A stretch of DNA of 63,314 bases, the filler included. It is 4 parts of 4 records of this genome, joined end to end, with 100 filler letters (N's around TTAATTAATTAA, not from the genome) between each part and the next. Parts side by side here need not be neighbours in the genome. Positions count along the whole stretch, not along the records: positions 1 to 14,380 come from SRR33789315_44; 3 more parts are not named here. One strand, 5' to 3'. Made by a program: the position numbers and the translations under genes. Every line of letters begins with the position of its first letter. Within the stretch, counting starts at the first letter, position 1. This document shows positions 49-18,393 of the stretch, in pieces. The notes beneath the pieces were generated by a model. That model had not been told where the DNA came from. It saw nothing but the letters and a program-made list of their open reading frames with translations, and searched no databases.

Positions 49-61
49 TATGTGTGTACTA

Positions 62-826: not shown

Positions 827-833
827 TTTAGGT

Positions 834-890
834 GCATAATATTTTATAGCACACGAATCGCGCGTATTTCTGCTTGTATAACGCTCATTT
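834..890 (-). other. Degenerate attC-like right half / cassette boundary
   Basis: The minus strand reads ...GCGTTATAcaagcagaaATACGCGCGATTCGTGTGCTATAAAATATTATGC. TTATGC is near-complementary to the cassette's ACATAAC R'' box. Confidence 0.4.
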
Positions 891-907
891 TTCTAATTAA
901 TATACTT

Positions 908-939
908 TTACCAAATTACCAAATTACCAAATTACCAAA
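908..939. repeat. Tandem repeat (TTACCAAA)x4
   Basis: Four exact 8-bp copies read directly. Confidence 0.95.
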
Positions 940-1075
940 GATATCACTATCTCTAGGTTTCTATTATCTTTAATCAAATCTAAATGGAACAATGTGCGCG
1001 CCTGGCCCATTTACTTGAATATGTGAGCAAACAACAATTTGACCACTGAACTAGCTATTATATTTAGTCAATATC

Positions 1076-1201
1076 AATGTCCGGTTATCGCTCATGCTAA
1101 TGGAAAAGGAGGCTACCATTCCATTAGCATGAGCGAATTGCCGCCATTGCTCTTCCTTACCCTCAAGGGCAAGTGCAGGGCAAGAGCGGCTATACGACAT
1201 T
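1076..1201. other. Multi-hairpin non-coding structured element
   Basis: Perfect 18-bp inverted repeat at 1088-1105/1119-1136. A second stem GCTCTT...AAGAGC contains an inner CCCT/AGGG hairpin. An outer AATGTC/GACATT stem closes the structure. Confidence 0.7.
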
Positions 1202-1319
1202 CAAAATTGTATAGGAAGAATGTATGTTTAGGTGTCGTTAATGTGGATTGATAAAGAGGTGATATAAAGGCTCCAACGACTCAGTCATAGAATAGAGTCG
1301 CGGATTGCCTTGTTTTTTG

Positions 1320-2573
1320 TTAAAGGGGGCGCCACTTTCCAGGTTCTTTCACAATTTTTAATTCGGGAATAAAGCATTTTGGAAAATCGGTGAGCTTGTC
1401 AACAACACACAAGTAAAACGCAGCTTTGAAAGTCTTAACCGCAAGAGGGAAGTTGCCCGAGAGGTAGGCTGTGATCCCTCCGACTAAGAATGCTTTAATT
1501 GCGCACTCCTTACCAACTGAAATAATGAGGCGCTCAACATCCACCTCAGCAACGATCATTAAATATAGCTCTTCTGTTGTCCAGCGCGTTTGAAGCTGAG
1601 GATATGAAATGGTAATTTTAACGCATCCAACTTTTATGCGTTTTGTTCGCCACTTAATTCTGAACTCGGGATAACCTATAATGGTGGCAAGTTTTTTATC
1701 CTCTTTAACCGTTAAATCGCTACAGGGGAGATCATCTTCAGACAATTCATTTATGGCCGCTTCATAACGTTCCTCTTGAGTTATTGGCGCTTTATATGTA
1801 TGTTCGGCAAGTTCAGGCAATGCAGGGATATTCGAAATATGTTGCACGCTGGAAAATACAATTCTAAGTTGCGTCTCGTCAGCCAATTCTCCAATCCGTC
1901 TCGTTTGTCGACCATCTTCCCCTATTACCCAGCTGTCTTGCCAGTATTCGTCTGCTTGACTTCTAGGTCGAAGAGATAAAAACCGATCTAGTCCAGATGT
2001 GACAGCGCGAAGTCTTGTTCTGCGAAGCACTATTTTCGGAACGACATTATATAGTTCGGCCGAAATGTTTTGGTCTTCTAAGGTTGCAATAATGCTACCA
2101 ACATTGGGGTTCTTTGCGTCAGCTAAATCAAACTGGCTAATAATTTCTTTCTCTTGCGCAGTGCTGGCCGTGTCTGAAATGAATAAATCACTAAATAGGG
2201 TACATTCTAGTTCATGCTGAATCGGGATGTCCATGGTGCTTACTGTGTATGATGCCGTGTCTTTGTATATTTTGTATGTTGCGCGTGCGCAAGTGTTTAA
2301 CACGAGGTTTTGATCTTCTACTGTTCTTTCCTCGTCACTGTCTGCGGGGTCACCTAGCACTTCTAAAAAGGCTCCGGCTTTGAGAGATTTTTTAAACACC
2401 ATCCTTGCATCTAGTTGAAATGCGGATTTTGGGTCTGAGGTCCACTCGGCATTCGAGTTGGCTATGCGAGTGTTAGGATAGCTTTTAAGCCACGTTAAGT
2501 CGGTTTCTTGTTTAAAATAATCAATGATATTTGGGTCATTGAGGTTAAGGTCTGCTTGTAAAATAACTGTCAT
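1320..2573 (-). CDS. Hypothetical protein (417 aa), transposon cargo
   Basis: Long ORF with a GGAGA RBS before the ATG at 2573. Acidic N-terminal two-thirds; basic, Cys-containing C-terminus with a hydrophobic hairpin. No family recognised. Confidence 0.8.
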   Translation of the reverse strand: MTVILQADLNLNDPNIIDYFKQETDLTWLKSYPNTRIANSNAEWTSDPKSAFQLDARMVFKKSLKAGAFLEVLGDPADSDEERTVEDQNLVLNTCARATYKIYKDTASYTVSTMDIPIQHELECTLFSDLFISDTASTAQEKEIISQFDLADAKNPNVGSIIATLEDQNISAELYNVVPKIVLRRTRLRAVTSGLDRFLSLRPRSQADEYWQDSWVIGEDGRQTRRIGELADETQLRIVFSSVQHISNIPALPELAEHTYKAPITQEERYEAAINELSEDDLPCSDLTVKEDKKLATIIGYPEFRIKWRTKRIKVGCVKITISYPQLQTRWTTEELYLMIVAEVDVERLIISVGKECAIKAFLVGGITAYLSGNFPLAVKTFKAAFYLCVVDKLTDFPKCFIPELKIVKEPGKWRPL

Positions 2574-2846
2574 ATGCACTTCTCCATTTGTGATTATAGT
2601 TATCAAATGAAAGTATATGCTATTCATAGTAAAGGTGGTTAATTTTTAATCACTTTATGCGTTTGGCAGGCAGTCTGGTTTGGTGTCTCCTACCACCCTA
2701 AAATGAGTGCGTTTATGCGCTTAGCCTCTGAAGGATGATAGAATGCACTGCCCTTAGCGGTTTTTCGACTGGTCGCTAAGACGTTTTGTTTGAAAATGAG
2801 AATTTTTTATGTTCGCTATCCGGTTGTAAATCGCCGTAAAACAACT

Positions 2847-3131
2847 CTATGCTGACGTCTCGCTCATTTCGGACTTACAGAGATCACGATAATGCCTGCT
2901 TAATTGTTGGTTCTGCCCTTTTTTGAGGTAGCCTGAAGCGCTACCGAGGGCTGAGACTATCCCACATTTAGGGCATAAAGCTGTCTGTTTATCATCAGTC
3001 CACGCTGAAATTTCTTCAGTTTTAAATGTACTTAAACAATTAAAGCACCCATATAAAGCGCTGTTCATTATCGCTTCTGTGTGGCGACTCGACATCTTAT
3101 GGGCTTTTTTGAGTTTAAATATACTGAACAT
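2847..3131 (-). CDS. Small zinc-ribbon protein (GCFxC ... TALCPxCG), C-terminus possibly altered
   Basis: Two CxxC pairs (GCFNC, CPKCG) and a GAGGAG RBS before the ATG at 3131. Confidence 0.65.
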   Translation of the reverse strand: MFSIFKLKKAHKMSSRHTEAIMNSALYGCFNCLSTFKTEEISAWTDDKQTALCPKCGIVSALGSASGYLKKGQNQQLSRHYRDLCKSEMSETSA

Positions 3132-3185
3132 TTTATTCTCCTCGTGCGACATTAGGACCAATGGCTCGCTGTGAAATAATTGTCA

Positions 3186-3389
3186 TCACTTGACCTCTCG
3201 CATTTTTTGATTAGCAAGCAGATTTGAAATCGCTTCTAGTATGATGGCGGCATCTGCGACATTGTTCGTTAATGCACCTTCATCACCGTAGAAGAAACTA
3301 ACATTGCCGTTTCGACCAATTACGCACGCGGCGAGAGCGTCGTCCAGGAGGGTTTGGCAAACCTTCGCGTTGTTATCATTCGTATTCAT
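3186..3389 (-). CDS. Small hypothetical protein (67 aa)
   Basis: AGGA RBS before the ATG at 3389; co-oriented directly downstream of hipA. Confidence 0.55.
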   Translation of the reverse strand: MNTNDNNAKVCQTLLDDALAACVIGRNGNVSFFYGDEGALTNNVADAAIILEAISNLLANQKMREVK

Positions 3390-3447
3390 TGTCTTTTCCT
3401 GTTGGGCTGAGAGATATGCACATAACTGCTTAAGCAATCTATTATTG

Positions 3448-4770
3448 TTAGAAAAGCGTGTGCTGAATTTCATCAAATAGCGCAACTTCATCAAGAAAAT
3501 GCGTGGTTCGCTTTTTGATAAGTTCTATCAATTGAACCAGGTAGCGGTTTTCCAGTCGCGAGAGTCTAGCGTCATGACAAAGTGATAACGAAGCTGAACT
3601 AATGCATGCCTTTGCGACATCCGACAGAACTTTTTTGAGTTGCTCTGGCGGTATATCTACCTCTTCGGCAAAGCACAGCAGATGAAACGCAGTGATAGCA
3701 TCAATATCAAATTCATCGCCAATAGCCATGGCCAGTGAAGTATCCAGTTGTGGGTCATCCATTGCTTCAAAGACAATCGAAACGAGGTCGTAAAATGGAG
3801 CCAAGTGAACACCGAATTGGTCGATGTAAAAGCTTATGTTTTTCGCGTGGGCATCGCTGTTACCGATAATAAGATTGAAGCTCACCCAGACTAATAGTTG
3901 ATATATGGCATCATCAGACTGGCAATGCTCCCGGACAAAATCGAAGAGCTGAGGCAGGTTTGCGCCGTCGCGACAATGTGCGACATCAGGATGTGAGCCG
4001 TAGATACGCTCATATTTGTGCTCTGGCGGCAAGTTCAGTGCCTGACAACCGTCAATGATGTGGCGTTTACTGACTGAGCCATCCTCGTGAATATCTCTAT
4101 CAAATCGCTTCACAAGCAATACTTGATATTGCCGTTCGTCACTCCTAAGCCTTTGCAATGTGGTTTTTGCAACAGGTAAACCAATCTTTTCCGCAAATCT
4201 CATACAGAACAGTTCATTGAGCACGAGATACGACCTTTTGGGCTCAAACTTCACTATGTGAGTGGTGGGGAGCGAGGTATTACCCAAATGGAATGTGCCA
4301 TCTTTTTTAACATGGACATTGAGCTTTTTCTGAACGCCTGCCACGCCAAGACGAAATTTGCCATTAAAGAGTACGACGTCGCTGCCCAAGGATAATCTTG
4401 ATGCGAGCTCTTGTTCGGACAACTCCTGCACATCTAACTCAATAGCCCTAGGGACTTCAAAATGTAAGATACCCGCAGTGTCTGAGGCAATATGCTTGAG
4501 AGGGCCGACAATGTCATTGCGTGAGAGATAAAACGAGTGGAGTAAAAACTCCAAACCAATTCCCTCCGGCAGTAAATTTTTGAGAAAACGCAAGGTGCTT
4601 TGGGTCTCAATACGCTCGCTGATTGGCAAATGTGGTGAGAGAGCATACCCGACCGCTGACCATGTTTTGTCATATTTAAATTCACAACTGACTGGAGAGA
4701 TGAAAGTAAGTGTGCCTACCCTCTGAGATTCAGCGTAGACGATATAGGTAATGGATTTTTTATAAGTCAT
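3448..4770 (-). CDS. hipA: HipA-family Ser/Thr kinase toxin (HipA N-terminal + HipA_C domains)
   Basis: Motifs FEYDxxW/LSPHLP-like, NLLPEG, GVAGVQKK, HIVKFE, NExFCM, GNSDAHAKNIS and LAPFYDL. Confidence 0.9.
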   Translation of the reverse strand: MTYKKSITYIVYAESQRVGTLTFISPVSCEFKYDKTWSAVGYALSPHLPISERIETQSTLRFLKNLLPEGIGLEFLLHSFYLSRNDIVGPLKHIASDTAGILHFEVPRAIELDVQELSEQELASRLSLGSDVVLFNGKFRLGVAGVQKKLNVHVKKDGTFHLGNTSLPTTHIVKFEPKRSYLVLNELFCMRFAEKIGLPVAKTTLQRLRSDERQYQVLLVKRFDRDIHEDGSVSKRHIIDGCQALNLPPEHKYERIYGSHPDVAHCRDGANLPQLFDFVREHCQSDDAIYQLLVWVSFNLIIGNSDAHAKNISFYIDQFGVHLAPFYDLVSIVFEAMDDPQLDTSLAMAIGDEFDIDAITAFHLLCFAEEVDIPPEQLKKVLSDVAKACISSASLSLCHDARLSRLENRYLVQLIELIKKRTTHFLDEVALFDEIQHTLF

Positions 4771-5050
4771 AAGGGGCTTGGCGCTCGAATGACGGTGTTA
4801 ACTCGATAGTTAACTTCAAGTTCGCTAGCGATATTCGCTTTAACATACCGTTCTTTCGTAACCCTTGAAGGCACGAAAAAGCCAATCACTTCTTCTACAT
4901 TCTCGCAAACGTTGTCTGAAAACTGGTCGCGCTCATCCGCCCAACGGCTGCATTTCGTTCTATGGAAAATGAGTTTTCGTCCTTTTGTTTTGTTCAAACT
5001 CAAAAGGCCACACATGAGGTTTAATATCGCAGACTTGCAGTAGACCATGA

Positions 5051-6025
5051 CTATGCTCCTTCTTCGCGAATAAGACGCCGTGTTAGCTCGTGTTCAGCTC
5101 CAAGGTATTCGAGCATCAATAAGATACTGACAGGTGGCACGGATGCGCTCCTGTAAGCCATCCAGACTAGATTAAGCAGCTTTTGGTTAGCTTTCAGTAC
5201 CGCTGGTTTATCCTGAAAATAGAGCGACAGCAGATTGTCATCGAGGCTGTTTGAAAAGCTAATGCGCATATTAGTCATTGTTTTACGCATTGACACAGAA
5301 GGGCGGGTGGGTAATGACGGATAACCAAGCCGCTCTCGCATCCTTTGCGTTATTTCATCAAGCGTTAGATTAGTTGATTTGGCTTGTAGTGCAGCACTCA
5401 CTGCTTCTAACCAGTGTGCTGTTGCTGGTAGATTTAAACCAAGTGATTGATACTCTTCCTTGCAAGACGGGCACGAAGTCTCTTCAGGTGGCAACCAAGA
5501 TGTATTAAAACTGGTAAAACGAAAGCCACAGGAAGTACACGTTGATAGTAAAGGGAAGCCGTGTCGGTAGCAGCGCAGCATCGTGGGTATTTGATGATAG
5601 GTATGCCAGTATGCGCCTCCGTAGCTCTTTGTATCTTCTGCCACGCAATCAGCACACCAACGCCAGTGATGTGCTGCTTTAAGGTGCTTTTGTAAGCCAG
5701 GCTGAACCTTTATGTTACTCATGGACAGTAACGTATCATCCGCAAATAATCGGTGTTCTGCGGCGGGTAAAAACGGGCGGTAGTAATTCAGGAGCGTATG
5801 TTCCTGAAGCAAAATATCGAAGGACATACTCTGCTCATAGTGCCGGGCAATTTCGCTATAAAGCGGCCGCCAAACCGCCATTGGCGTTATTGTGGATAGA
5901 TTCTGAAAATACGGTAAGCAAGTCCGCCGAAATTCTTTATGGCCTGATTGATTAAACCACCGTGCCAATGCACCTAATAGATGCTCATTGGGCAGTAGGT
6001 GTGGTAGCGCAATTTTAGCGTTCAT
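5051..6025 (-). CDS. tniQ: TniQ/TnsD-family target selector, short form (~324 aa)
   Basis: N-terminal LPxxLPNExLxGxLxR; zinc motifs WCADC, HQIP..CYRH, CTSC and CPSC; overlaps the tnsC stop. Likely start is the ATG at 6025. Confidence 0.9.
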   Translation of the reverse strand: MNAKIALPHLLPNEHLLGALARWFNQSGHKEFRRTCLPYFQNLSTITPMAVWRPLYSEIARHYEQSMSFDILLQEHTLLNYYRPFLPAAEHRLFADDTLLSMSNIKVQPGLQKHLKAAHHWRWCADCVAEDTKSYGGAYWHTYHQIPTMLRCYRHGFPLLSTCTSCGFRFTSFNTSWLPPEETSCPSCKEEYQSLGLNLPATAHWLEAVSAALQAKSTNLTLDEITQRMRERLGYPSLPTRPSVSMRKTMTNMRISFSNSLDDNLLSLYFQDKPAVLKANQKLLNLVWMAYRSASVPPVSILLMLEYLGAEHELTRRLIREEGA

Positions 6026-7463
6026 TGCTGAATTTATCTTTATCGATGAATTTTGGAATGAGTAACCCGAGTCCTTCAGTCGGGGCATCTGCTGACTTCA
6101 ACACTTTCGGTATAGGCGGCAGCTGTGCTTTATCCGCTTCATCAACGGCCTTTTTTTCGGCATTTGAGTACACGGCGATTTTGTCCTTATTATCTCTCAG
6201 TTTCTGCTCATATCGCGCTGTATTGCCTGCTCTTAATGCAATAAGTGCAGGCTCGATGAGATGAAACTGCGTTTTAAAAACGGTATTAAGTAGCTTAATG
6301 TCGTAAGTACAGTGATATTTTTCCTGTTTGGATGCCTGCTGGCGCATCGTTAGTAATGTTTCATGATGCTGGTGGGCAAGCCGGGTCATGATGGCGGGAA
6401 GGCCACAAGATAAGTGATGAAACGTCTTTTTAAACGCTTGATGCTCAGTTTGTTGTCCTTCGATGACGAGTCCTGGTGGGAAAAGCGCATCAAAGAATTT
6501 ACTGTAATACGCCGAATCCGGCAGATGTGTTTTGAGCTGAAACTCTCTGTCATTCAGCATACGTCGAACGGTCGTCATATCATGTCCCAGGCGCTCATCT
6601 CCTGCCTTTAAGGTATCGAATAATTCCACACCTTGGCGCGTTGAACTAAGAAGAATAGGGATACCTATTTTGTTAAAGAGCGCCTCCAAAATCTGCAAAC
6701 TTGGGCTGTCTTTGATTTTGTTGTAACCGAGCATAAATTGCAGCTCATCAATATGCACAAGGCCAATACTGTGATGCATAGTGATGTTTTGCATCACAGC
6801 CATCAGCTTATCGACAGAGTGCTTACCATTATCATCGGTCCATTTTTTGGCATAACTGTCATCGTAATCATTTTCTAGCGCTGTATCGACGGCACGAAGA
6901 AAGCTGTTTACCATGGCTTTTGGAGAGCCATTGGGGGGTAAATCAAAGGAAATCCACACTAACTGCTTTTTAGTGAGGTGCTTGGCGTTATAACGTTGAT
7001 GTTGGATTGCTTGCGGTATTTGCTGTAACACCCGACGAATAATAGTGGTTTTTCCCGTGCCGGATTCGCCAATCACAAGGGCTGTTGGTGCCGTTGTTAT
7101 CCCACTGACATCACTTGGGTTAAACTGACGACCATGGCGCATCGCTGAGGCTACTCTGTCTCCCATTTTGCGCATTTGGGCAGAGAAAGGATTACGTCTT
7201 ACATAACCAAACAAAATGAGGCTCATTACTTTAACATAGAGCCCCCAGGTTTGTGCTGCCGGGATGTGGATATCAGTGAGTTGCCGCAATTGTGTCATCT
7301 GATAGATAACCGGAAGCTCCCAAAAATTAGTCATAATATCGGCATGAACAGTCAATCGTTCCAGTAAAGCTGATTGACTCAATTCAATTTTGATCGCTTC
7401 TGTCAGCGGGTTGTCATTTAAGTTTTCGTCCATATGCGGCTGGTAATCTGCATCAATTGGCAT
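6015..7463 (-). CDS. tnsC: TnsC AAA+ ATPase transposition regulator
   Basis: N-terminal NPLTEAI, Walker A GESGTGKT, Walker B LVHIDE; lies between tnsB and tniQ. Confidence 0.92.
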   Translation of the reverse strand: MPIDADYQPHMDENLNDNPLTEAIKIELSQSALLERLTVHADIMTNFWELPVIYQMTQLRQLTDIHIPAAQTWGLYVKVMSLILFGYVRRNPFSAQMRKMGDRVASAMRHGRQFNPSDVSGITTAPTALVIGESGTGKTTIIRRVLQQIPQAIQHQRYNAKHLTKKQLVWISFDLPPNGSPKAMVNSFLRAVDTALENDYDDSYAKKWTDDNGKHSVDKLMAVMQNITMHHSIGLVHIDELQFMLGYNKIKDSPSLQILEALFNKIGIPILLSSTRQGVELFDTLKAGDERLGHDMTTVRRMLNDREFQLKTHLPDSAYYSKFFDALFPPGLVIEGQQTEHQAFKKTFHHLSCGLPAIMTRLAHQHHETLLTMRQQASKQEKYHCTYDIKLLNTVFKTQFHLIEPALIALRAGNTARYEQKLRDNKDKIAVYSNAEKKAVDEADKAQLPPIPKVLKSADAPTEGLGLLIPKFIDKDKFSNER

Positions 7464-7468
7464 ATCTG

Positions 7469-9700
7469 TTAATCCCCGAATAGTTCATTATCTAAATCGT
7501 CATATAGCAGGCTATCAGGCCCTTTGATGGTTGTTTTTTCGTTCGATAGTTGTTCTTGAACCTCAAGTGCATGTTTGACTTGATGAATAGCAGCATATTG
7601 TCGTTGAAGCTCTTTAGTGCGCGGATTCATGCCTAATCGAGTGTTGTCTGGGGTACTCGCAATAATGTCTTCATTCAGGCGTATCAACTGCTGTGAGCAC
7701 TGCTCTTTGAACATTCGTAACTTTTTCATGTTGAGCTGATTTTTATGGCGTTTATCCTTAAATTGCTCAAGCAAATGAAGAACAGGCTCCCAGTGCTGGT
7801 CGATAAATGGACTTTCGTTATTAACATCTTTTGAATCGAAACGGATATATTGATTATCTTCCGTTTTATGCCATATATGTGATGTCCATTGTCGCCAACG
7901 TTTGACCGGAATTTTGAATGCGCCGGAATGCTTCGCACGAGTAAACCATCCGGCCTTTTTAGCGTAATCTGAGTAATAAACTAAGCCATCTAAGTAAACC
8001 CCATCACTGCGGACCGACGCCAACTCCTCCGGTAAAAATGCCCAACGAATACGCCCTGTATCTTCAGATGTCACAACACGACCACCATTCATTTCTTGCT
8101 TTAAACTGTGCTTGAACAGTGCATTAGGGGTGATATCGATATCCTCTCGGATCGCATTAATATTAAAGCGATTTAAGCGGTCAGCGGAATTGTTATAAAG
8201 AACAATGACGTTAATGATTTCAGCGACGAGCGAGTCATAGTCTAAGATCGCGTGATTTGATGGATGCTGCTCACCGCGCTGAGGTGCCTCGGGGAGAGCT
8301 CCTGGTATATAATGAACTGTGGCATCGTTGAGCGTTTTAAACTTGCGCTCAACAATCCCTTTAGCATCACCACGAAAAACTGCGGTGAAGTTGTAGCCGC
8401 GTATTCCAATTTCTGATTTCAAAACGGATGTAATCAAGCGATCTGGATGTTCCGTGCCGTTATCAACCGTGACTTCAACTGGGATATGATGGGCCGGCCA
8501 ATCGTCTTGTGTGATGATGACGCCAAATTTGGCGGCGAACTCGACTTTATCGCTACATGCATTAACAAGCGCCTGACTCGCCCCGGCCCAGTTCGGACCA
8601 TCGAATCCAATGTAGAAGCCGACAATGGCCGTTGAAAACACATCAATGACAAGATATAACACAGGCCGTCCCATGCTAAATTGTCCTGATGTATCAAATG
8701 GATAGCGAATATATAAATCAAGAACGGTTGCATCAACTTCATAACGAAACGTAGCTCCGATAACCCCATCGTGGGCACTTCCTTGACGGTCTGCATAGTC
8801 CTTTTCATAGGTAATATAACCATATCGAATTTTTAAATATTCTGTTTTGTTAACAATCTGCTTGAAGTGATAGCGTAGCTGCGATTCAGATAAAGAATCA
8901 CATTCGTCAAATGGGATACGCGTTTCAGTTTTGACGTTATCGATGATGCGCTCTAGGGATATCGACTCAAAATTATATTGATAAATCTCAATCGCTTTAT
9001 AATAGGTAAACTTCGGATAACGTTTGCGGCCTTCTTTGGATTTCATAAATGCTACAACTTGGCGTATCCGTTTTTTATGCTCCTCTGTTATCCCCATACT
9101 TTTTGAGCGGCTTTGACTATTGTCTGCTTTACCGCGACCGCGCTTTATATTAGATGGCTCATCGATTTTGTCAGGTAAAAAATAATTCTTCCCGACATTT
9201 TTAAGCTTCACCGGTAGCAACGCGTTATGCGTGCATCCAAACACGATAAAACGATTAAATGCATTGTAGTAAGCGCTTGTAGTTTGCCATGCTTCATCCC
9301 CTAAGCGCTCACGGTTTGACGTTAATAGCTGCTCAACTTCTGCTGCGATACCGTGTTCGTATAGGTACTGACAAATCAATTTTTCAGACGTTAATGGTTC
9401 AATGAAAGAGAATTTTCTGTCACGCTTTTTAAGCCAGGTATGTCGACCAAGTCGTTTTAACGTTTCGTCGCTATAAGACATTTCTGCTGGCATGTCGTAA
9501 TGTGATGAGTTTGCCGTTTGCTTTTTCAGCATTTTCTCTATGTCCGAAAACTGCTTGATATTGGGTTTACTGACGTTGTTGGCACTAAGGGCCTGCTCCA
9601 TGTCTGCAACGGCAGCCTGTTTTCTGCGCAGGTTGACATGGCATACAAGGTACGTAATTTTACTTTCTTCATCTGTGATGACTTGCCCTACATAGATCAT
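7469..9700 (-). CDS. tnsB: TnsB DDE transposase (743 aa)
   Basis: Catalytic triad YEVDAT / VTVDNG / KGIVERKF and GRPVLYLVIDVFS. The start overlaps the tnsA stop as ATGA at 9697-9700. Confidence 0.93.
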   Translation of the reverse strand: MIYVGQVITDEESKITYLVCHVNLRRKQAAVADMEQALSANNVSKPNIKQFSDIEKMLKKQTANSSHYDMPAEMSYSDETLKRLGRHTWLKKRDRKFSFIEPLTSEKLICQYLYEHGIAAEVEQLLTSNRERLGDEAWQTTSAYYNAFNRFIVFGCTHNALLPVKLKNVGKNYFLPDKIDEPSNIKRGRGKADNSQSRSKSMGITEEHKKRIRQVVAFMKSKEGRKRYPKFTYYKAIEIYQYNFESISLERIIDNVKTETRIPFDECDSLSESQLRYHFKQIVNKTEYLKIRYGYITYEKDYADRQGSAHDGVIGATFRYEVDATVLDLYIRYPFDTSGQFSMGRPVLYLVIDVFSTAIVGFYIGFDGPNWAGASQALVNACSDKVEFAAKFGVIITQDDWPAHHIPVEVTVDNGTEHPDRLITSVLKSEIGIRGYNFTAVFRGDAKGIVERKFKTLNDATVHYIPGALPEAPQRGEQHPSNHAILDYDSLVAEIINVIVLYNNSADRLNRFNINAIREDIDITPNALFKHSLKQEMNGGRVVTSEDTGRIRWAFLPEELASVRSDGVYLDGLVYYSDYAKKAGWFTRAKHSGAFKIPVKRWRQWTSHIWHKTEDNQYIRFDSKDVNNESPFIDQHWEPVLHLLEQFKDKRHKNQLNMKKLRMFKEQCSQQLIRLNEDIIASTPDNTRLGMNPRTKELQRQYAAIHQVKHALEVQEQLSNEKTTIKGPDSLLYDDLDNELFGD

Positions 9701-10518
9701 ATGTTGAGCTCGACAGGACGGAATAGTCTGATATAACGCGTTGTATCCACTGGCAATAAATGACGTAAACACGCATATTGAAATAGGGCTTGAACTCGCT
9801 CAAGGGGCTGACTTAACAAGGCTTCAAGCTGTTTGAAATGGCATTGTAGTTCTGCGCGGGGGGACGTCATCCAGGTATGAATGAACGCAATGCAAAACTC
9901 TCGCAACTCATCAACTGACGCTTCAACATGTGCGGCAAGTAAGAAATAATTAAAATTCCACGCCTCGGCTTTAGTTGCATCACGCTCGGTCACAACTTGG
10001 TAATCAGTGTTACGTCGAAGCCAATATTGGCGTTCTATTTCAAATTTTTGCCATATCCTTTGGTCTTTTTGCTGAACATTGCCATTGTCATCTTCTTCAT
10101 AGATTTCATCAAAGTACTTGAATGTATAGGCAATGTGATAATGCCCTTCTGACTGCCCTGCATATTTGACGAGAAAATCTGTCGTCATCACATAAGCGAT
10201 GTTAGTTTTGTAATTGCGGGGATGGATAAGATTCAGCTCGACTGCGATGTCGAGTGTTTCATCAACATCGAGAGGAAACTGCTCTAAAACGTCAACTCGA
10301 TTTGGTGCTAACAGCAGTTTTTTGTATGTACGAGACTCGCCGTCGGATAAGAGATGCACATTACGTTTTTGCAGCGGACAGAAGTTCCAGTGACGTCGGC
10401 CGACTTGGCGCACATCACGCACAGTCAAATACGGTTTATAAATTCCCGTTTTTTCAATGTCTAGCTTCCATGCGTTTAGTTTGATTATGTCTTTGTTACT
10501 AACGGTAATGTTTGCCAT
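9697..10518 (-). CDS. tnsA: TnsA endonuclease
   Basis: Motifs YKPYL, HLLSDGE, EQFPL, HP..VMTTDFL and KFEIERQYW. The start is uncertain (10518, 10524 or 10554). Confidence 0.9.
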   Translation of the reverse strand: MANITVSNKDIIKLNAWKLDIEKTGIYKPYLTVRDVRQVGRRHWNFCPLQKRNVHLLSDGESRTYKKLLLAPNRVDVLEQFPLDVDETLDIAVELNLIHPRNYKTNIAYVMTTDFLVKYAGQSEGHYHIAYTFKYFDEIYEEDDNGNVQQKDQRIWQKFEIERQYWLRRNTDYQVVTERDATKAEAWNFNYFLLAAHVEASVDELREFCIAFIHTWMTSPRAELQCHFKQLEALLSQPLERVQALFQYACLRHLLPVDTTRYIRLFRPVELNI

Positions 10519-11123
10519 TTGCATGCTGCATTCGATTGGGTGAATTTTGAGCACGGTACAGCAAAAAAAAGTTTTTTGTAAGACTGTTTGTTATTCTATT
10601 TATTTGTTATAATTCAGCAACTTACATAATATATCGGAATTATAGATTTAGTCAATTCAAACGATATTTGAGCACATATTTTGATAAAATATGTCACTCT
10701 GCAAGATGTTGATTTTATTGTGTTTTTTTTATCATCGTTTTTTAGTGAATTTTTCACTTTTTTATGAATTTTTTAAAGAAATACTGTTATTTTTTATACG
10801 TTTCATATGTCTCACATACCAGTTTGGTTGAGCAAAAATACAACCAAATCACTCGTTTCTAACGTTATGTTTCTACTGAATAAATCTCAAATTATTGCAA
10901 CATCATTTCTCCAAAGAAATAGCAAAAAAATAATGCATTTTTGGCATGTAAAACTAACCTTAAAAACCAGAAAAAATAATCGGAATTTTTACATTAATAG
11001 TATGAGTATCTAAATAGGTTATTATCAAAGTGATGATAACCTACTACTGATTTAAATGGGGGGGGCTTTTTTAGATAACGCTTCTAGTTTGATAAAACGT
11101 CAAAAAATACGGTACTGAATATC

Positions 11124-11405
11124 ATGAGTATTCATCAAGAAAACCACACTGACGGAAGACCCCTCTACAACGTTGGAACGCTTTTCTTGGATGTGCAAGA
11201 CCCTCTTTTCACTTGTCACAGCGATAGAACTGTCCGCTGGTTAGAAAATGCCCAGTTTCATATCTGCGGTCACGTTCACGAAGGTTATGGCGTTTGGAGA
11301 ATGGGAAACACAACACTCCTCAACGCTAGCGTGTTTACATGGCGATACCAACCAACAAACTTACCGATTGAGTTTGAAATTATTCTAGGAAAAAAAGGCG
11401 TATGA
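11124..11405 (+). pseudogene. C-terminal fragment of a calcineurin-like metallophosphoesterase
   Basis: HICGHVHEGYG...LLNAS is the final GHxH motif; the N-terminal metal motifs are absent. Confidence 0.6.
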
Positions 11406-11485
11406 ATGATGGGGGTTTTTTGCCTCATGTTTAACGTTTCATTAATCCAAAGGTTATGGGCAATACCTACGAGGTTTTATTGTTA

Positions 11486-11776
11486 TCACGAGATAATTGC
11501 TCGTTGATATAGCTGTGCATATCGGTCACATAGTAAGCCAAAATCCAATGGCTCTTTGCCCATGATATCGACTTGTGGGGTAGGGATCCCTGTTGGTTCG
11601 TCCACGTCAATGTAGTAAACATGTATTTGCACCGTTTCACTACTTAGGCGATTCAGCTCACTCATCAATCTCAGGAAGAGAAACTGATAGCGTTCATTAA
11701 TCTCGGCATAACAAGACAACACGAGATTAGTATGATCACCGATAAAGTTGGTAAGCCTGTTGTTGTCGAGGTACAT
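11486..11776 (-). CDS. Hypothetical protein or gene fragment
   Basis: 96-aa ORF with protein-like composition and no clear RBS; may be the 3' remnant of a broken gene. Confidence 0.35.
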   Translation of the reverse strand: MYLDNNRLTNFIGDHTNLVLSCYAEINERYQFLFLRLMSELNRLSSETVQIHVYYIDVDEPTGIPTPQVDIMGKEPLDFGLLCDRYAQLYQRAIIS

Positions 11777-12118
11777 ACTGTTTTCCGAGTTTAGGGATAT
11801 CTTTAACGCTTGAGTATACCGCCTTCTAATATCAGAGCCACCCCCTTAAAACTGAGATTTGGGGAACTATTGAACTCAAGTGAATTTTCATTTTTACCGG
11901 CTTCACCGCAAAAACCAGTTGTTTGAATATGTCCATCTATGGAATACTCGGGTAAATAACTTTGGCTTAAATGTATTGATTTTTTCAATAATTCTTTTCC
12001 AGAAACACAGCAATTTATAACTATGTAACTTCTATTAGTAGGCTTCTTAGTTAGGGACGGGCAGTTAGCTTTTGGGAATTTATGAAAAATATACTCGTTA
12101 AATAAAGTTTGGTAAGGG

Positions 12119-13885
12119 GTGCTTGTGATATATGAAAATGTTGAAGGTAAATTTTTGGACTTTTTGCATAATCCAGTTTGCAATGCAGCGATGCTAAATA
12201 AAGGTTTTAGTTCTTCAGTTTTGCCTTCATTTTTATATAGATTGATGTCTTATTTCAAAGAGCACTCAGCTATTGATAATTTCGAATTATATTTCTTAAA
12301 AAAGTTAGCTAATATTGAACATGAAATAGCAAGCATAAATAAGAAATGTGGGAGTGACGATGTCTTAGAGCGGGAGGTTATACTTAGTTCTTTGTCTAAG
12401 TACCTTTCCATAGAAATCCACTCTATTGAGCGAGAAAATGAACTGCCAATCTCTAAAGAACAATTGTCTGTATTTAAAGAAAAGGAGGTTTTTGTAAAGT
12501 TTGAGTATCATTTTAATAGGCTGAGTGAGCATTTTAATATTGATGGTGGACGTATTTTACAAATAGTAAAAAATAAAAATATTTGGATTTTATTCTATTT
12601 AAGTGAAATTTATTTTTTATATAAGCAAGGGATGCTGGAAGCGTCTTATAGTGGTAAAAAAATAACTTTCACGATGCCGGATACAATATCAAAAACTCGT
12701 TTTAAGTCATATTGGCTAAGTGAGATTTTAGAAAGTTTGTCACAACAAGCAGATAAAGAAATGTTAAAGGGATTTTCAGAGTTTATTCAGAGAGGCCGTC
12801 TTGAATTTGTCGCAACTAACTTAGTTGAACAGGTGTTGGATAAAATATTTTCCATTAAGCCGAAATATCTTGATAAGAGCCAACTAAATTCTGAACAATA
12901 TATCTTAATGAAAGATTTAATCTGTATTTATTCAGTAATATATTCCCTGTCCTTAAAAGGTGTAAAAAATATTTCCGCTACTTATTTTATTAATAGTGGC
13001 TTAGTAAAATGTTCTTCGTTAACGTTTGTCCAAAAACACTTGAATCAAATTCATCGGAAGTTTAAAGGGGTTTATTCAACTATAGAGTTAAATGGAAGTG
13101 AGTTCACCTTAGGTAATTTTGAGTTCAAATTTGGAATTAGATATTTTGTTGGTGAGCTTGTCTTAAAAAAACAAAAGGAAGTCAGAGGGAAGGACTTTCC
13201 AGGTGAACTCGGAGATATTTTTGATAAAGTTTATGTTAGTAATTATTTGAAAAGCTTAGATGGAGGTTTTTTAACTGTATTTCCCGAGTTTCAACCCAGT
13301 AAATCTAACAAATCCAGTAAATCTGGTGAAATTAAAGGCTACGATATTGATGTTGTTGTGAGAGATAATAGGACAGAGCAGTATTACTTTATTCAAGTAA
13401 AGTATCTATTATCTAAGCTGCCAAAATTTCTGTCTGAACGCATCTATAATTTCAAAAAAGATTCGATTGGTAAGGGGTTTGATCCTCAACTATTGCAGTT
13501 AAAAAATAATTTTAATGACCCATTGATTAGAGAGAAACTTAAAAATCATGGACTCGATAAAGCTACACTTGAAAACAGTCACTTTGTTTTGTTACATAAT
13601 TTACCATACCTGAATTTTTATAAGGCCCAAGGGGTTCTTTTTTTTGAGTGGAATTTAGCAAGGAATATTCTGAAAAATGGAAAAATTTATTGGTATGAGG
13701 AGGGAATTTCAGGGTCTACATCTTCGAGTGAAAAATTGGAGCTATTTGATATGGAAAAGATAGTAGAAAGCTATTTCTCTAATAAGAAATTTGGGCGAGA
13801 ATTAACAACGTATTTTGAGTTGAACCAACGTTCTAGATTAATATTAAAAGATGGTAAAATGGTCATTGATTGTCCTCTTCTTTAG
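12119..13885 (+). CDS. Large low-GC protein with a C-terminal PD-(D/E)XK-like nuclease domain; candidate defence cargo
   Basis: 588 aa with a TAAGGGG RBS and the motif GDIFD...YDIDVVV...YFIQVK. The stop is 2 bp from the innermost transposon-end repeat. Confidence 0.75.
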   Translation: MLVIYENVEGKFLDFLHNPVCNAAMLNKGFSSSVLPSFLYRLMSYFKEHSAIDNFELYFLKKLANIEHEIASINKKCGSDDVLEREVILSSLSKYLSIEIHSIERENELPISKEQLSVFKEKEVFVKFEYHFNRLSEHFNIDGGRILQIVKNKNIWILFYLSEIYFLYKQGMLEASYSGKKITFTMPDTISKTRFKSYWLSEILESLSQQADKEMLKGFSEFIQRGRLEFVATNLVEQVLDKIFSIKPKYLDKSQLNSEQYILMKDLICIYSVIYSLSLKGVKNISATYFINSGLVKCSSLTFVQKHLNQIHRKFKGVYSTIELNGSEFTLGNFEFKFGIRYFVGELVLKKQKEVRGKDFPGELGDIFDKVYVSNYLKSLDGGFLTVFPEFQPSKSNKSSKSGEIKGYDIDVVVRDNRTEQYYFIQVKYLLSKLPKFLSERIYNFKKDSIGKGFDPQLLQLKNNFNDPLIREKLKNHGLDKATLENSHFVLLHNLPYLNFYKAQGVLFFEWNLARNILKNGKIYWYEEGISGSTSSSEKLELFDMEKIVESYFSNKKFGRELTTYFELNQRSRLILKDGKMVIDCPLL

Positions 13886-13887
13886 TG

Positions 13888-14026
13888 GTCACAAACTTTA
13901 TTTAATATTCACAAATTGGTTATTAGGGACAGTTAAAGTTTGAGTCACAAACTCTATTAAGAATCTGGCAAAATTTTAATTGGCGCTTTCAATATTTGCA
14001 GTCACAAACTTAATTAACAGTCATCA
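13888..14026 (-). repeat. Tn7-like transposon end with three TnsB-binding-type direct repeats
   Basis: GTCACAAACT-N4/5-TTAA at 13888, 13944 and 14001 (spacing 56 and 57 bp), with a weaker copy at 13908. The inward-reading terminus is TGATGACT followed by the first repeat. Confidence 0.75.
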
Positions 14027-14149
14027 TCTACGTCATCCTAGCAACCTCAGCGGCATTGCCGTCGCTGCTCGCCCCAATCACATAGTACAGCTATGCTCAT
14101 GGGGTCTCGCAGCTCGGCAGCTTTGCTGAGGCTCCTATGATTTAGTAGA
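14027..14149. repeat. ERIC-like palindromic repeat (MITE type)
   Basis: 123-bp imperfect palindrome TCTAC...GTAGA with the core CCCCAATCACATAG...CTATGCTCATGGGG characteristic of Vibrio-type ERIC sequences. Confidence 0.8.
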
Positions 14150-14179
14150 AACGGTTTACATGAATTTGCAAGATTGAAG

Positions 14180-14203
14180 AAACGAGCTTAGGCTCGTTTT
14201 TTT
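14180..14203 (+). terminator. Rho-independent terminator
   Basis: AAACGAGC-ttag-GCTCGTTT followed by a T tract. Confidence 0.75.
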
Positions 14204-14214
14204 GTTTTGTGGCT

Positions 14215-14360
14215 GTGCCACTTTATGTGCTGTGCTTATCTAGCATTCGCTGCGCTTATTAAGCATGCGCCATGCGCACTAAGCATGTGCTTTGCACACG
14301 GAGCATTCACTTCGTTCACCGTCATCCATGACGTTTTTGTCTCACATCCTTGAGAGCCAG
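14215..14360. repeat. Cluster of short REP-like palindromes
   Basis: Units include AAGCATGCGCCATGCGCAC, AAGCATGTGCTTTGCACAC, CGTCATCCATGACG and CTCACATCCTTGAG. Confidence 0.55.
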
Positions 14361-14380
14361 TTACTCTTTCTTCTACAGCC

Positions 14381-14480
14381 NNNNNNNNNNNNNNNNNNNN
14401 NNNNNNNNNNNNNNNNNNNNNNNNTTAATTAATTAANNNNNNNNNNNNNNNNNNNNNNNNNNNNNNNNNNNNNNNNNNNN
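14381..14480. other. Artificial contig linker
   Basis: N run containing TTAATTAATTAA (stop codons in all six frames). Confidence 0.98.
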
Positions 14481-14553
14481 CCAACCGACGTTGCGCCAAC
14501 CGACGTTGCGGTAACCGACGTTGCGCCAACCGCGTTGCGTCAACCAAGTTGCA
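14481..14553. repeat. Tandem ~15-bp palindromic repeat CCAACCGACGTTGCG, about 5 copies, degenerating rightwards
   Basis: Read directly; truncated by the contig edge. Confidence 0.9.
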
Positions 14554-14639
14554 CTTAGTGCTGCTAAGCTATTGGAGCTGAGTTCTTTTGGCTCTTATCT
14601 GCAATTCTAATGATCTTGAGTATAGAGTTTAGATGTAAA

Positions 14640-15524
14640 CTAAGGATTTACAATAATCGCTAAAGCGCCAAAAAGTCCCGAGTGCTGTCCTAAGCCAGGT
14701 AGGCAAATAATCTTATCTAGGGTGACGTTAGCGGGCATATGCACGTAGTTGGCAAGAGAGTGTTCGGTATACTTAATTATCTTGGTTAGCAAACCCGGCT
14801 TACTCATTACACCACCGCCCAAAATAATTTTTTGTGCACTGTAGCCAACAATCAGATTGTGACATAAGCTGGCCATCACTTGAGCTTGAATATCCCATGC
14901 TTGATGATGTTCATCCAACGTATCAGCCGGCTGTTGCCAAATTTGTCCTAGCGCAGTGCCGGAGGCCAGCCCCTCTACACAATTACCATGAAAGGGGCAA
15001 ATACCTTGGATCCCTTTGGGCGCGGGCACCAGCAGATGACCAATTTCTGGATGAACCAAGCCATGTAAGGGACGGCCATTTATCACCACCCCACCCCCCA
15101 CTCCAGTGCCAACAGTAATATAAATACTGACATCACACCCTTGTGAAGCTCCCCACTGATATTCGGCCAACGCAGCAGCGTTGACGTCAGTATCAATAAA
15201 TACCTCACAATGGAGAACTTGTTTAAGCCTCTCGACCATAGGGGTATGACTCCAAAATGGCTTTGGTGTCACTGTAATATTACCGAAACTGCTGGAATGT
15301 TGGTCTAAATCCAATGGACCAAAACAAGCTAAGCCCAATTGCTTAAAATTATAGCCTTTTCCTACCTGCTGCTTAAAAAAGTCACAAACCAAACCAAGGG
15401 TTTGCTCTGGTGTAGTGGTAGCAATACGAGTTTGTGCATAAATATTTCGTTGTGTATCCACAATAGCGCAATTGAATTTCGTTCCACCAGCTTCTATTAC
15501 GGCGAAATATGTGTTGTCTGTCAT
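14640..15524 (-). CDS. ROK-family fructokinase
   Basis: Motifs IEAGGTKF, DTDVNAAALAE, GTGVGGG, HPEIGH and CPFHGNCVEGLASG. Confidence 0.9.
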   Translation of the reverse strand: MTDNTYFAVIEAGGTKFNCAIVDTQRNIYAQTRIATTTPEQTLGLVCDFFKQQVGKGYNFKQLGLACFGPLDLDQHSSSFGNITVTPKPFWSHTPMVERLKQVLHCEVFIDTDVNAAALAEYQWGASQGCDVSIYITVGTGVGGGVVINGRPLHGLVHPEIGHLLVPAPKGIQGICPFHGNCVEGLASGTALGQIWQQPADTLDEHHQAWDIQAQVMASLCHNLIVGYSAQKIILGGGVMSKPGLLTKIIKYTEHSLANYVHMPANVTLDKIICLPGLGQHSGLFGALAIIVNP

Positions 15525-17224: not shown

Positions 17225-18393
17225 GCGTGTTATGTAGACTTATTTGCTGGTGATCTCAAAAGCTTAAAAAACACAATCCTTAGCTAACAGACTTAGGCGT
17301 AACTTACCTGCATTTAATGCCATTATACGATGATCCTAAAGGTGATAGTGATGGCGGATATGCTGTGTCTAATTACCGTAAAGTAAATGAAAAGTTAGGT
17401 AATATTGACGACTTAAAAGTACTCGCCATTGCATTAGATAAAGCAAGTATTAGCTTAGTATTAGATTTTGTATTTAACCATACCTCTGATGAACATACTT
17501 GGCCAATGGCCGCTAAGTCAGGCGAGGTAATTTCACTTGGAATGAACAAGCCCCAAAATGGGTGTGGACCACTTTTAACAGTTTTCAGTGGGATTTAAAT
17601 TATGCTAATCCTGCGGTATTTAATGCCATCACAGAAGAGATGTTATTTTTAGCCAATATAGCTTGTGAAGCCTTACGTTTAGACGCTTTGGCTTTTATTT
17701 GGAAAGAAATGGACACCGATTGCGAAAATCAACAAAATGCTCATACCCTTATTCAAGCGTTTAACCGTTGTTTACAAATATGTGCACCGGCCGTGGCATT
17801 CAAATCAGAAGCCAAAGTGCATCCTGATGAAGTAGTCAAATATATTGATAAGCAAGAATGTCAGCTATCTTACAACCTTCTTTTGATGGCATTAATTTGG
17901 GAGAGTTTAGCGACTCGTAATACTCAATTACTTACCCATTCCATGCACAAGAGTTTTGTCATATCCCCAGATTGCGCATGGGTAAACTATGTGCGCTGTC
18001 ATGATGATCGTTGGATACATCGGATTGCCTTAAGCCATCAAGTTATTAAACAAGCTAGTCACCCTAAGTCAGCCCAGTTTGAAGTATCTCAAGGCTTAAA
18101 AACTCATATAACTTCGTCAAAAGCATGAGGTATTTGGCCAGAGTCAAACTCACATTATTGAAACTGAAAATCCCCATATATTTGCTTAGAGGCGGTTTAA
18201 TGAGAAAGGCCACTATCTATTGGCATTGTGTAATTTTAGTGAACATAGTCAACAGCTAAATGCCAGTATATTGCAGTACTTAGAGGGAAAGCCTGTACTA
18301 AATTTAATCAATAGAAAATATATGCAAGGCCACGACTCAGCAATCAAATTAAATCCATATGAAGTGATGTGGCTTACCAATAAAGAGCACTAA
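17225..18393 (+). pseudogene. Amylosucrase/sucrose hydrolase (GH13) pseudogene
   Basis: Fragments [67 protein letters not shown] and PYEVMWL lie in different frames, with frameshifts, stops and internal deletions. Confidence 0.9.

Follow-up and report, generated by a model that had tools for sequence, protein, structure and literature searches.

A Tn7-like element with a short TniQ and no visible tnsD, probably a rearranged derivative of a dual tniQ-tnsD family

Gene content and ends of the element

The window, by which we mean the whole stretch of 63,314 nucleotides that was analysed, is a stitched draft in which the element part covers 14.4 kb. The contig carrying this part corresponds to positions 1-14380, ends at 14380 and is followed by an assembly linker. 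Hence, genes beyond 14480 are no neighbours of the element. The 14 kb on which a preliminary description was based are the whole contig, and the element is therefore visible only in part. Both contig ends are high-copy repeats, the left one (1-50) lying some 5 kb beyond tniQ. On the contig are the 14 kb next to the left end of a Tn7-like element, with these features:

3186-3389, minus strand: orf67, downstream of hipA; 72.5% identity (tblastn) to a 67-aa homologue at L001 3349-3552
3448-4770, minus strand: hipA-family kinase gene, cargo of toxin-antitoxin type (HipA_C, E 5.6e-46; Couple_hipA, E 9e-15)
4767-5048, minus strand: orf93, where tnsD stands in relatives; no family match and no homologue in the fetched loci
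5051-6025, minus strand: short tniQ; catalogued product of 324 aa from the second Met, longest frame 5051-6088; PF06527 at residues 29-180
6015-7463, minus strand: tnsC, AAA+ regulator of 482 aa; AAA_22 and TniB (Pfam); Tn7 TnsC 8glu, E 1.3e-24
7469-9772, minus strand: tnsB, DDE transposase; longest frame 767 aa; Tn7 TnsB 7pik, E 1.1e-41, over residues 272-613 (catalytic region)
9697-10554, minus strand: tnsA; longest frame 285 aa; PF08722, E 3e-13; Tn7 TnsA 1f1z, E 2.8e-12
11124-11405, plus strand: PDC-S10-like fragment, C-terminal piece only (PADLOC PDC-S10, E 4.9e-12, profile positions 172-216 of 223)
11486-11776, minus strand: orf96; 53% identical to L001 2527-2808
12119-13885, plus strand: orf588, low-GC cargo (GC 0.31); no Pfam, NCBIfam or PADLOC match
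13887-14026, plus strand: transposon end of left-end architecture; three 20-nt TnsB-type sites starting at 13887, 13943 and 14000
14027-14380, no strand: flank outside the element, with a high-copy hairpin repeat and a terminator-like hairpin
14381-14480, no strand: assembly linker (N run, TTAATTAATTAA, N run)

The intact tnsA-tnsB-tnsC-tniQ operon with a TniQ of about 324 aa, reported in the preliminary description, is confirmed by the reading frames, Pfam and the structure matches. It lies on the minus strand at 5051-10554, and its neighbouring genes overlap or abut. Encoding TnsA, TnsB, TnsC and a TniQ-domain protein, the element is a genuine Tn7-like transposon. Each of the four genes gives one unbroken tblastn segment against a relative from Alteromonas, with 69% identity for TnsB (over 762 residues) and 67% for TnsC. 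TnsA is 53-60% identical to its relatives, in one segment each, and since these align from residue 10-17 its true start is probably a later Met. The longest TnsB frame (767 aa) compares with 742-756 aa in the relatives; tnsB has no Pfam or NCBIfam match, and its D, D, E motif was assigned by eye from the translation.

The element end has its three sites spaced by 56 and 57, with a 7-nt terminal stretch ending in TCA at 14026; its alignment with the Alteromonas left end is in register. The terminus was placed at 14026 by comparing six ends and from loose ends at 14026/14027 in two other sequencing runs (X8, X1), and contigs from other contexts start matching the flank at this same point. In these two runs summed contig depth reaches 118-236 over the flank, against 7-9 over the tns genes, and the flank shows variant joints at 14065-14174. 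Positions 14027-14031 (TCTAC) would be the target duplication. Only this one end is on the contig, and a matching 5-bp duplication is seen in the Alteromonas relative only.

Among the cargo, hipA is 68% identical to a hipA located upstream of tnsA in the Alteromonas element, where orf67 accompanies it; orf96, also shared with that element, is there on the side of the tns block opposite to its place in the window copy. The preliminary description had proposed hipA and the small frames as possible targeting partners. Yet, hipA, orf67 and orf96 were matched in the Alteromonas element only and in none of the other fetched loci, and HipA kinases are described as ordinary Tn7-like cargo in the accessible part of Benler 2021. 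The atlas neighbours of orf588 are hypothetical proteins of 545-577 aa, with minority labels (NERD, Upx-like, Hjc) that are leads only; judging from these, it is possibly a defence nuclease.

A short TniQ in a family that carries tnsD

The preliminary description had left room for the short tniQ being a recently truncated tnsD. This is ruled out by end-to-end homologues of similar length: the 11 closest have 317-330 aa and invariant CxxC pairs, and the cluster representatives with E <= 1e-30 (n=54) have 302-340 aa and match end to end, save one 208-aa fragment. The short form is thus natural, and sequence comparison places TniQ in a large family of proteins with 300-340 aa. Its hhalign alignment (probability 99.3%) takes in only residues 11-267 of TnsD, and proteins of TnsD length match only the first ~160 positions of its profile. 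The Pfam scan of TniQ did not find PF15978. Against the PDB, the sole match of the profile is Tn7 TnsD(1-318), and the I-F3 TniQ chains were not reached at E <= 1; the PADLOC TniQ_IB profile matches TniQ at E 1.9e-16. An AF2 model predicts a helical domain, a zinc-finger region and a second helical domain. These comparisons indicate that the short TniQ is a TniQ core without the DNA-reading extension. We infer that it acts as a co-factor of TnsD or as an adaptor for a second pathway, and not as a stand-alone selector.

Which genes co-occur with TniQ homologues had been pointed out beforehand as an informative comparison, and the answer is tnsD. It follows tniQ in all nine family loci with DNA downstream of tniQ (L001-L004, L007-L011), Pfam finding PF06527 plus PF15978 on three of these nine, and in all 19 short-tniQ loci from 18 of 401 sampled genomes belonging to the same taxonomic order. 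As two of the 19 repeat earlier loci, this makes 26 distinct loci, and in 26 of 26 tniQ is directly followed by a tnsD-type gene of 444-514 aa that abuts or overlaps it. The idea of an undescribed target-selection route, raised in the preliminary description, does not stand up to this pattern. The family core operon is tnsA-tnsB-tnsC-tniQ (~320 aa)-tnsD (~485 aa), the long TnsD consisting of a TniQ core plus a C-terminal TnsD/helix-turn-helix region. Only this core is conserved across the family; cargo varies and is mostly made of defence genes, and no cas genes or CRISPR were seen in the scanned frames of the relatives. The hosts are marine gammaproteobacteria (Alteromonas, Colwellia, Shewanella, Aliagarivorans and relatives).

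In six of the seven relatives examined for this (G001, L002, L003, L004, G157, G194) the end of gcvP precedes the right end, at 7-17 nt in five of them and ~140 nt in L004; in the seventh (G073) the right end is beside a different gene. The Alteromonas element, 33.9 kb long, has matching 5-bp GTTGG duplications at both ends. The relatives thus appear, from their sequences, to form a coherent family homing to the 3' end of gcvP. This attachment site was not found in the searchable literature, and supplementary tables may list it. For the window copy, gcvP adjacency is known from the relatives only: its flank is a high-copy repeat, and there is no gcvP in the window, the right end of the element being off the contig.

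At the syntenic place of tnsD, the window copy has a 93-codon frame, orf93, and then hipA. The start of orf93 is preceded by GGAG 7 nt before the ATG, and its stop overlaps the hipA start. Across the whole 63 kb, a profile search of frames of at least 50 codons found no second TniQ/TnsD-like frame, even with the threshold at E 10, and tblastn found no tnsD remnant there; this search took in the other three contigs of the window, which are a small part of a genome. The absence of TnsD, TnsE, TnsF and Cas genes, as first described, is borne out on the contig (1-14380). In the frames of the contig that were scanned, Pfam and PADLOC found no Cas, TnsE or recombinase families, no TnsF-like gene was recognised in the family-profile scans, and of the repeat families listed for 1-15000, the 20 largest include none that is CRISPR-like.

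The orientation of the operon also differs. In seven of seven relatives the right end, with three packed sites at a spacing of 18 and 21, is located upstream of tnsA, and in four of four with a visible left end this end lies downstream of the operon and has its three sites 53-58 apart. In the window copy, a left-type end, so assigned from site spacing and likeness to the relatives, lies 3.5 kb upstream of tnsA, the reverse of these four, and there is no packed right-end cluster between tnsA and this end. The tns block here points away from the left end and in the relatives towards it; in agreement, hipA matches the Alteromonas copy plus-to-plus and the tns genes plus-to-minus.

At least three other runs contain variants of the element that are 95-99% alike. 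In X8, tnsB and tnsC have 38 differences in 4253 nt, fewer for their length than the stretch from the 3' part of tniQ through orf93 to hipA, with 31 in 1205. All four tns genes are intact; in an element long dead, breaks would be expected. Both observations are counterpoints to reading the copy as a derivative. Synonymous and non-synonymous counts rest on the 40 of 291 differences that were listed. Among these, 11 of 13 in orf93 change a residue, suggesting that it is not a conserved gene, hipA has 5 synonymous to 10 non-synonymous, and in the C-terminal third of tniQ the ratio is 6 non-synonymous to 5 synonymous, which hints weakly at relaxed constraint.

Origin of the tnsD-less arrangement

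Since the relatives always carry tnsD after tniQ and insert at gcvP, we regard the window copy as a derivative that has lost tnsD. With tnsD removed and the tns block reversed, it is probably a rearranged derivative of a dual tniQ-tnsD element, most likely unable to home to gcvP on its own. On the model of Tn7 and glmS, the TnsD of the family would bind the conserved 3' coding end of gcvP and then recruit TnsC and TnsAB, which would paste the element a few bases past the gcvP stop codon with a 5-bp duplication. In the window copy, tnsD is cleanly gone, with the hipA module now abutting tniQ, and the copy may be immobile or dependent on TnsD supplied from elsewhere. One might suspect the assembly instead, the window being a stitched draft whose element contig ends in high-copy repeats at both sides. 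But a chimeric or mis-oriented contig is hardly credible: the junction of tniQ, orf93 and hipA is bridged independently in two runs from different studies, by X8 record 30 (4450-5654) and X2 record 10 (4959-5296), which means that the tnsD deletion is not an assembly error; X8 records 31 and 32 span tniQ to 11926, and X2 record 16 joins the left end to its flank (13888-14201).

The copy could also be a complete functional element whose tnsD, or other selector, lies off the contig, either further left within this element, where the same rearrangement would have carried it, or in trans on a second element of the family. The contig stops at the repeat at 1-50, about 5 kb past tniQ, when the element of the Alteromonas relative measures 33.9 kb, the tns genes are unbroken, and the surroundings of the core show clear shuffling of cargo and gene order. 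Yet, the other three contigs hold no TnsD-like frame, for the small part of a genome that they cover, and because tnsD adjoins tniQ in 26 of 26 relatives a displaced tnsD would have no precedent among them, which makes this rather unlikely. Less likely still is a natural TniQ-only element, in which the short TniQ, alone or with an unrecognised partner (a host factor, or hipA/orf67/orf96), would follow a TnsD-independent route. Runs from at least three studies do contain the block from orf67 to orf96, with intact tnsABC-tniQ, at 95-99% identity, and the X8 copy of this block is embedded in different sequence on either side (records 28, 32). Moreover, hipA, orf67 and orf96 are retained in the Alteromonas element (53-72% identity) while other cargo differs, and small TniQs are proposed as adaptors for additional selectors in the accessible text of Faure 2023. 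But this TniQ lacks the DNA-reading extension, only tnsD co-occurs with it across the family, and the trio is absent from all other relatives; the tns block is also mis-oriented relative to the sole visible end, and the tniQ counts given above hint, weakly, at relaxed constraint. The loss of tnsD from a rearranged copy thus remains the reading we favour.

Place among known systems and meaning

Prototypic Tn7 of E. coli uses TnsABC+D to home to glmS. The best solved-structure matches of all four window proteins are Tn7 proteins, and the asymmetry of the ends, with packed sites at the right and spaced sites at the left, is that of Tn7, as are, in the relatives, the 5-bp duplication and the insertion just downstream of a conserved gene with the right end beside it. 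In contrast with Tn7, there is no TnsE and there is an extra short TniQ, the relatives target gcvP rather than glmS and carry 2.9-20 kb of cargo between the right end and tnsA, and the window copy is without TnsD. Tn6022 has TniQ plus TnsF and targets comM; TnsF, of ~500 aa, has zinc fingers and an inactivated tyrosine-recombinase fold and is operonic with tniQ. The likeness is a short TniQ needing a separate DNA-binding partner encoded next door, but here the family relies on a TnsD paralogue for this part. A Tn6022-like element is improbable, as tniQ is followed by the 93-codon frame and hipA and no recombinase family appears in the profile scans. Tn5053/Tn402 has TniA, TniB, TniQ and TniR, lacks TnsA and carries a resolvase gene and res site; it is ruled out by the presence of TnsA and by profile scans finding no resolvase family on the contig.

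In CRISPR-associated transposons of Tn7017-type I-F3 and types I-B and I-D, TniQ serves Cascade and TnsD serves homing, according to the available portion of PMC11406308. The family likewise has two TniQ-family proteins of unequal size, the small one core-only like the Cascade adaptors. Yet, the cas genes and array that define CRISPR-associated transposons (I-F3, I-B, I-D, V-K) are not found in the visible 14.4 kb. A dual tniQ-tnsD layout without CRISPR has already been described, in the accessible part of Faure 2023 (Mol Cell). That class and the window copy both have TnsA, TnsB, TnsC and a small core-only TniQ, and the close relatives of the copy, with a small TniQ followed by a TnsD of more than 400 aa and defence-rich cargo, resemble it further. 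In the window copy the TnsD half is missing and the tns block has the opposite orientation with respect to the left end. The copy descends from this dual class, and the defining second gene is absent from the visible DNA.

There is nothing exceptional in the window element as found: it is a copy, decayed or rearranged, of a known Tn7-like class and does not qualify as a new targeting mechanism. Were it a natural TniQ-only element, the short TniQ would have a function of its own and a tnsD-less lineage present in several marine samples would be mobile by an undescribed route. As a derivative, it draws attention to the family, in which the pairing of the short TniQ with TnsD holds in 26 of 26 loci across deep divergence. 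This constancy sharpens the question, posed in the accessible part of Faure et al., about the role of the small paralogue in dual elements without CRISPR, for which the window copy, a natural tnsD deletion, may be a usable test case.

Gene layout of the window element

The window joins at least four contigs, with runs of N around a stop-linker (TTAATTAATTAA) at 14381-14480, 36849-36948 and 57242-57341. Because it was stitched from separate contigs, genes on either side of a linker are not physically linked. The Tn7-like element lies on a contig of 14.38 kb (for the TniQ of the window, the longest contig in the database measures 14380 nt), so that genes beyond 14480, ROK and MFS genes among them, are no neighbours of the tns genes. 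That contig carries the following features.

Features of the contig carrying the Tn7-like element
9697-10554, minus strand: tnsA
7469-9772, minus strand: tnsB
6015-7463, minus strand: tnsC
5051-6025 as catalogued (longest frame to 6088), minus strand: tniQ
4767-5048, minus strand: orf93, a 93-codon frame
3448-4770, minus strand: hipA
3186-3389, minus strand: orf67, a small gene
2847-3161, 1320-2627 and 62-826, minus strand: three frames without family matches
11124-11405, right of tnsA: gene fragment
11486-11776, right of tnsA: orf96, a small gene
12119-13885, plus strand: orf588, a 588-codon gene of low GC content
Starts at 13887, 13943 and 14000: three 20-nt repeats

The preliminary description had seen here a tnsA-tnsB-tnsC-tniQ operon with a short TniQ and no tnsD. 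The gene layout bears this out, as do matches to Tn7 structures: TnsB, which has no family match in Pfam or NCBIfam, matches Tn7 TnsB (E 1.1e-41), and prototypic Tn7 proteins are the best or only solved relatives of TnsC, TnsA and the TniQ profile. With three TnsDs of the family as queries, tblastn matched only the paralogous tniQ in the window, and profile searches of all frames of at least 50 codons in the whole window gave no second TniQ/TnsD frame even at E 10. The tniQ stop is followed by GGAG, an ATG and then orf93, whose own stop overlaps the hipA start. A homologue of orf93 is absent from every fetched locus, and the DNA likeness of this stretch to the region upstream of the Alteromonas hipA is no higher than in shuffled controls. 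Rfam at gathering thresholds and ARAGORN gave no RNA genes in the window, hence no RNA-gene attachment site is visible.

The match of the 93-codon frame at 11124-11405 to PDC-S10, a PADLOC candidate family, is confined to the final ~45 positions; the frame is a gene fragment, the remains of a deletion or rearrangement beside the region upstream of tnsA. The gene orf588 (588 aa, 31% GC) has no family match; its Atlas neighbours are hypothetical proteins of 545-577 aa, a minority of them labelled NERD, Upx-like anti-phage or Hjc, and a role as a defence nuclease, in the cargo slot adjoining the left end, is possible. The Atlas search with orf435 returned nothing usable (best score 0.86). A short tandem repeat, four copies of TTACCAAA, lies at 908-939. 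The next contig opens with about three tandem copies of a 15-nt unit (AACCGACGTTGCGCC-like, 14483-14532) and at 17317-18128 carries two adjacent frames (93 and 188 aa), each matching parts of an alpha-amylase catalytic domain, which are probably one gene split by a frameshift or sequencing error.

The short TniQ and its TnsD partner

The 11 nearest homologues of TniQ measure 317-330 aa, are 37-54% identical to it and share invariant CxxC pairs and a conserved C-terminus. When the TniQ profile was searched against 1.84 billion cluster representatives, 54 proteins matched at E <= 1e-30; all are 302-340 aa long and aligned across nearly the whole profile, save a single 208-aa fragment. Matches to proteins of TnsD length (about 470-640 aa) start only near E 1e-24 and are confined to about the first 160 profile positions. 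This length distribution led us to reject a recent truncation of tnsD as the origin of tniQ. Profile-profile comparison aligned the short TniQ to residues 11-267 of the family TnsD (probability 99.3%). The AF2 model, of moderate quality (pLDDT 63.3) and relied on for domain order only, consists of two helical domains with a zinc-finger region between them; its sole significant Foldseek match is Tn7 TnsD(1-318) bound to TnsC, at a low TM-score (0.33-0.36). The short form corresponds to the 'core' of Faure et al. 2023.

Pattern-based scans of species-representative genomes and metagenomes gave ten loci. Nine have DNA downstream of tniQ, and in all nine a gene of 483-486 aa, or one cut by the contig edge, follows directly; the tenth (29% identical) stops too early to count. 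On the three loci scanned for domains this gene carries PF06527 and PF15978 (TnsD), with helix-turn-helix matches on one. Among 401 genomes of the same order, short-tniQ matches occurred in 18, at 19 loci, and in 19/19 the next frame matches the TnsD profile over its length. Together with the earlier loci, two of which recur among the 19, this makes 26 distinct loci, and tnsD directly follows the short tniQ in all 26. The preliminary description had suggested asking which genes co-occur with close TniQ homologues, and this is the answer. Its interpretation survives in part: TniQ is naturally short, a member of a 302-340 aa family, but the proposed undescribed targeting route is not supported: the relatives pair tniQ with tnsD. 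The tandem tniQ-tnsD arrangement is already known as a class: Faure et al. 2023 have about 1,000 such loci and also raise the question of the role of the short TniQ in CRISPR-less dual elements.

Only tnsA, tnsB, tnsC, tniQ and tnsD are conserved across the family. Beyond these genes the cargo varies and is made up largely of defence genes (Lamassu, viperin-like, Nsn, AAA_13 ATPases, a TerB/BrxD-like/helicase set), and no cas genes were seen in the relatives' loci scanned. In 7/7 relatives the right end, upstream of tnsA, carries three abutting sites at spacings of 18 and 21; in 4/4 the left end, downstream of the operon, has its three sites 53-58 apart. The terminus lies 7 nt past the outermost site and reads inward TG(A/G)T(A/G)AC in the six ends compared. 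The Alteromonas element spans 33.9 kb (G001:C1, about 3315577-3349447) and is flanked on both sides by GTTGG, a 5-bp duplication 3 nt past the gcvP stop codon. Some 20 kb of cargo separates its right end from tnsA, among it Lamassu (LmuA and an SMC-like ATPase), an RND efflux set and two cation-efflux genes; after its tnsD come a TerB-N/TerB-C protein, a BrxC/D-like ATPase and a DEAD helicase.

The end of gcvP lies just before the right end in six of the seven relatives whose right flank was examined (7-17 nt away in five, about 140 nt in L004). The seventh, L037 (G073:C7:29200-32000), is more distant; it has the same end repeats and tniQ-tnsD pair and adjoins a non-gcvP gene, which suggests a switch of attachment site together with TnsD divergence. 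Recognition of glmS by Tn7 TnsD is the established precedent for target reading by this protein. By analogy, the family TnsD would read the conserved C-terminal coding sequence of gcvP. We found no paper in the searchable literature linking a Tn7-like element to gcvP, a site that supplementary tables may list; Table 1 of the review PMC11406308 does not give gcvP as an attachment site, nor does the accessible text of Benler 2021.

End type and cargo order in the window copy

The visible end of the window element is of the left type, with spacings of 56 and 57, and aligns in register with that of the Alteromonas element. It sits upstream of tnsA, at a distance of 3.5 kb, and the operon is transcribed away from it, the opposite of the arrangement in every relative whose left end is visible (four of four). 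We found no packed right-type cluster between tnsA and 14026, and because there is no right end there, we rejected a separate nested element as the owner of the end at 14026. The preliminary description had asked for the element's other end; no second end was found anywhere in 1-14380. A stretch of ~110 nt upstream of tnsA, conserved with the Alteromonas element, is a promoter-like region and not a transposon end.

The window and Alteromonas elements share hipA (68% identity), orf67 (72%) and orf96 (53%), at differing positions. These genes, i.e. hipA, the 67-aa gene just downstream and a gene of 96-117 aa (window 3186-4770 and 11486-11776; Alteromonas locus L001, 2512-4954), are kept with the tns core, and all other cargo differs between the two; no HipB-like gene was recognised beside either hipA. 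In Alteromonas all three lie upstream of tnsA, whereas in the window hipA and orf67 follow tniQ and orf96 lies across the operon. Between window and Alteromonas, hipA aligns plus-to-plus and the tns genes plus-to-minus. These altered positions and strands therefore need at least two breakpoints, at which we found no repeats accounting for the rearrangement.

Other public sequencing runs (X1, X2 and X8) contain contigs with 95-99% identical versions of 3161-11926; together they cover the window contig except about 480-2880 and 12000-13900, gaps that do not count as evidence of absence. X8 records 31 and 32 extend to 11926, and the boundary of the element is confirmed in X8 and X1 by loose ends at 14026/14027. 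Summed contig depth in these two runs is 118-1678 over 1-50 and 14027-14380, against 7-9 over the tns genes; these high-copy repeats explain the contig breaks. The repeat at 14027-14380 contains a long hairpin, and in other contigs its core of ~104-108 nt is replaced by 16-18 other letters, in the manner of REP or MITE-type elements. Against the window, X8 shows 38 differences in 4253 positions over tnsC-tnsB (5626-9878) and 31 in 1205 across the tniQ 3' end, orf93 and hipA; with the latter count, X8 is probably a different sample from the one behind the window. Coding effects were classed for 40 of 291 differences, a small sample chosen by the tool: 11 of 13 are non-synonymous in orf93, 6 of 11 in tniQ residues 204-341 and 10 of 15 in hipA. 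The counts would fit a non-coding orf93 and, from these 40 of 291 differences, hint at weak constraint on tniQ.

Origin and mobility of the window copy

The most economical reading, and in our judgement a fairly probable one, is that the window copy descends from a dual tniQ-tnsD element homing to gcvP, has lost tnsD and was rearranged internally; it would be immobile or would need TnsD from another source. We regard an assembly artefact as highly improbable: the tniQ/orf93 boundary is bridged by X8 record 30 (4450-5654) and X2 record 10 (4959-5296), and X2 record 16 spans the left end with its flank, so the arrangement is not an assembly error. Overlapping pieces in X1 cover both sides of 5050, none with 31 letters on each side, and were not counted as bridging.

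The main rival to a rearranged, tnsD-less descendant places tnsD beyond the contig or in trans. The contig ends before any second transposon end, and the place directly after tniQ, where the relatives carry tnsD, is taken by orf93; we hold this rival to be unlikely, though the least so of the alternatives. In our view the short TniQ cannot select targets alone, because it has no DNA-reading part and never occurs without TnsD in the 26 relatives, and we find a targeting route using TniQ only quite improbable.

Broken copies are common in this Tn7-like family: tnsC is in two pieces in a Shewanella locus (L003, 8559-10011), tnsA is split in a metagenome locus (L009, 1709-2496), and tniQ has an internal stop in genome G020 (L016 and L032). 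If its tnsD is lost, the window copy would be immobile, or would rely on a TnsD from elsewhere.
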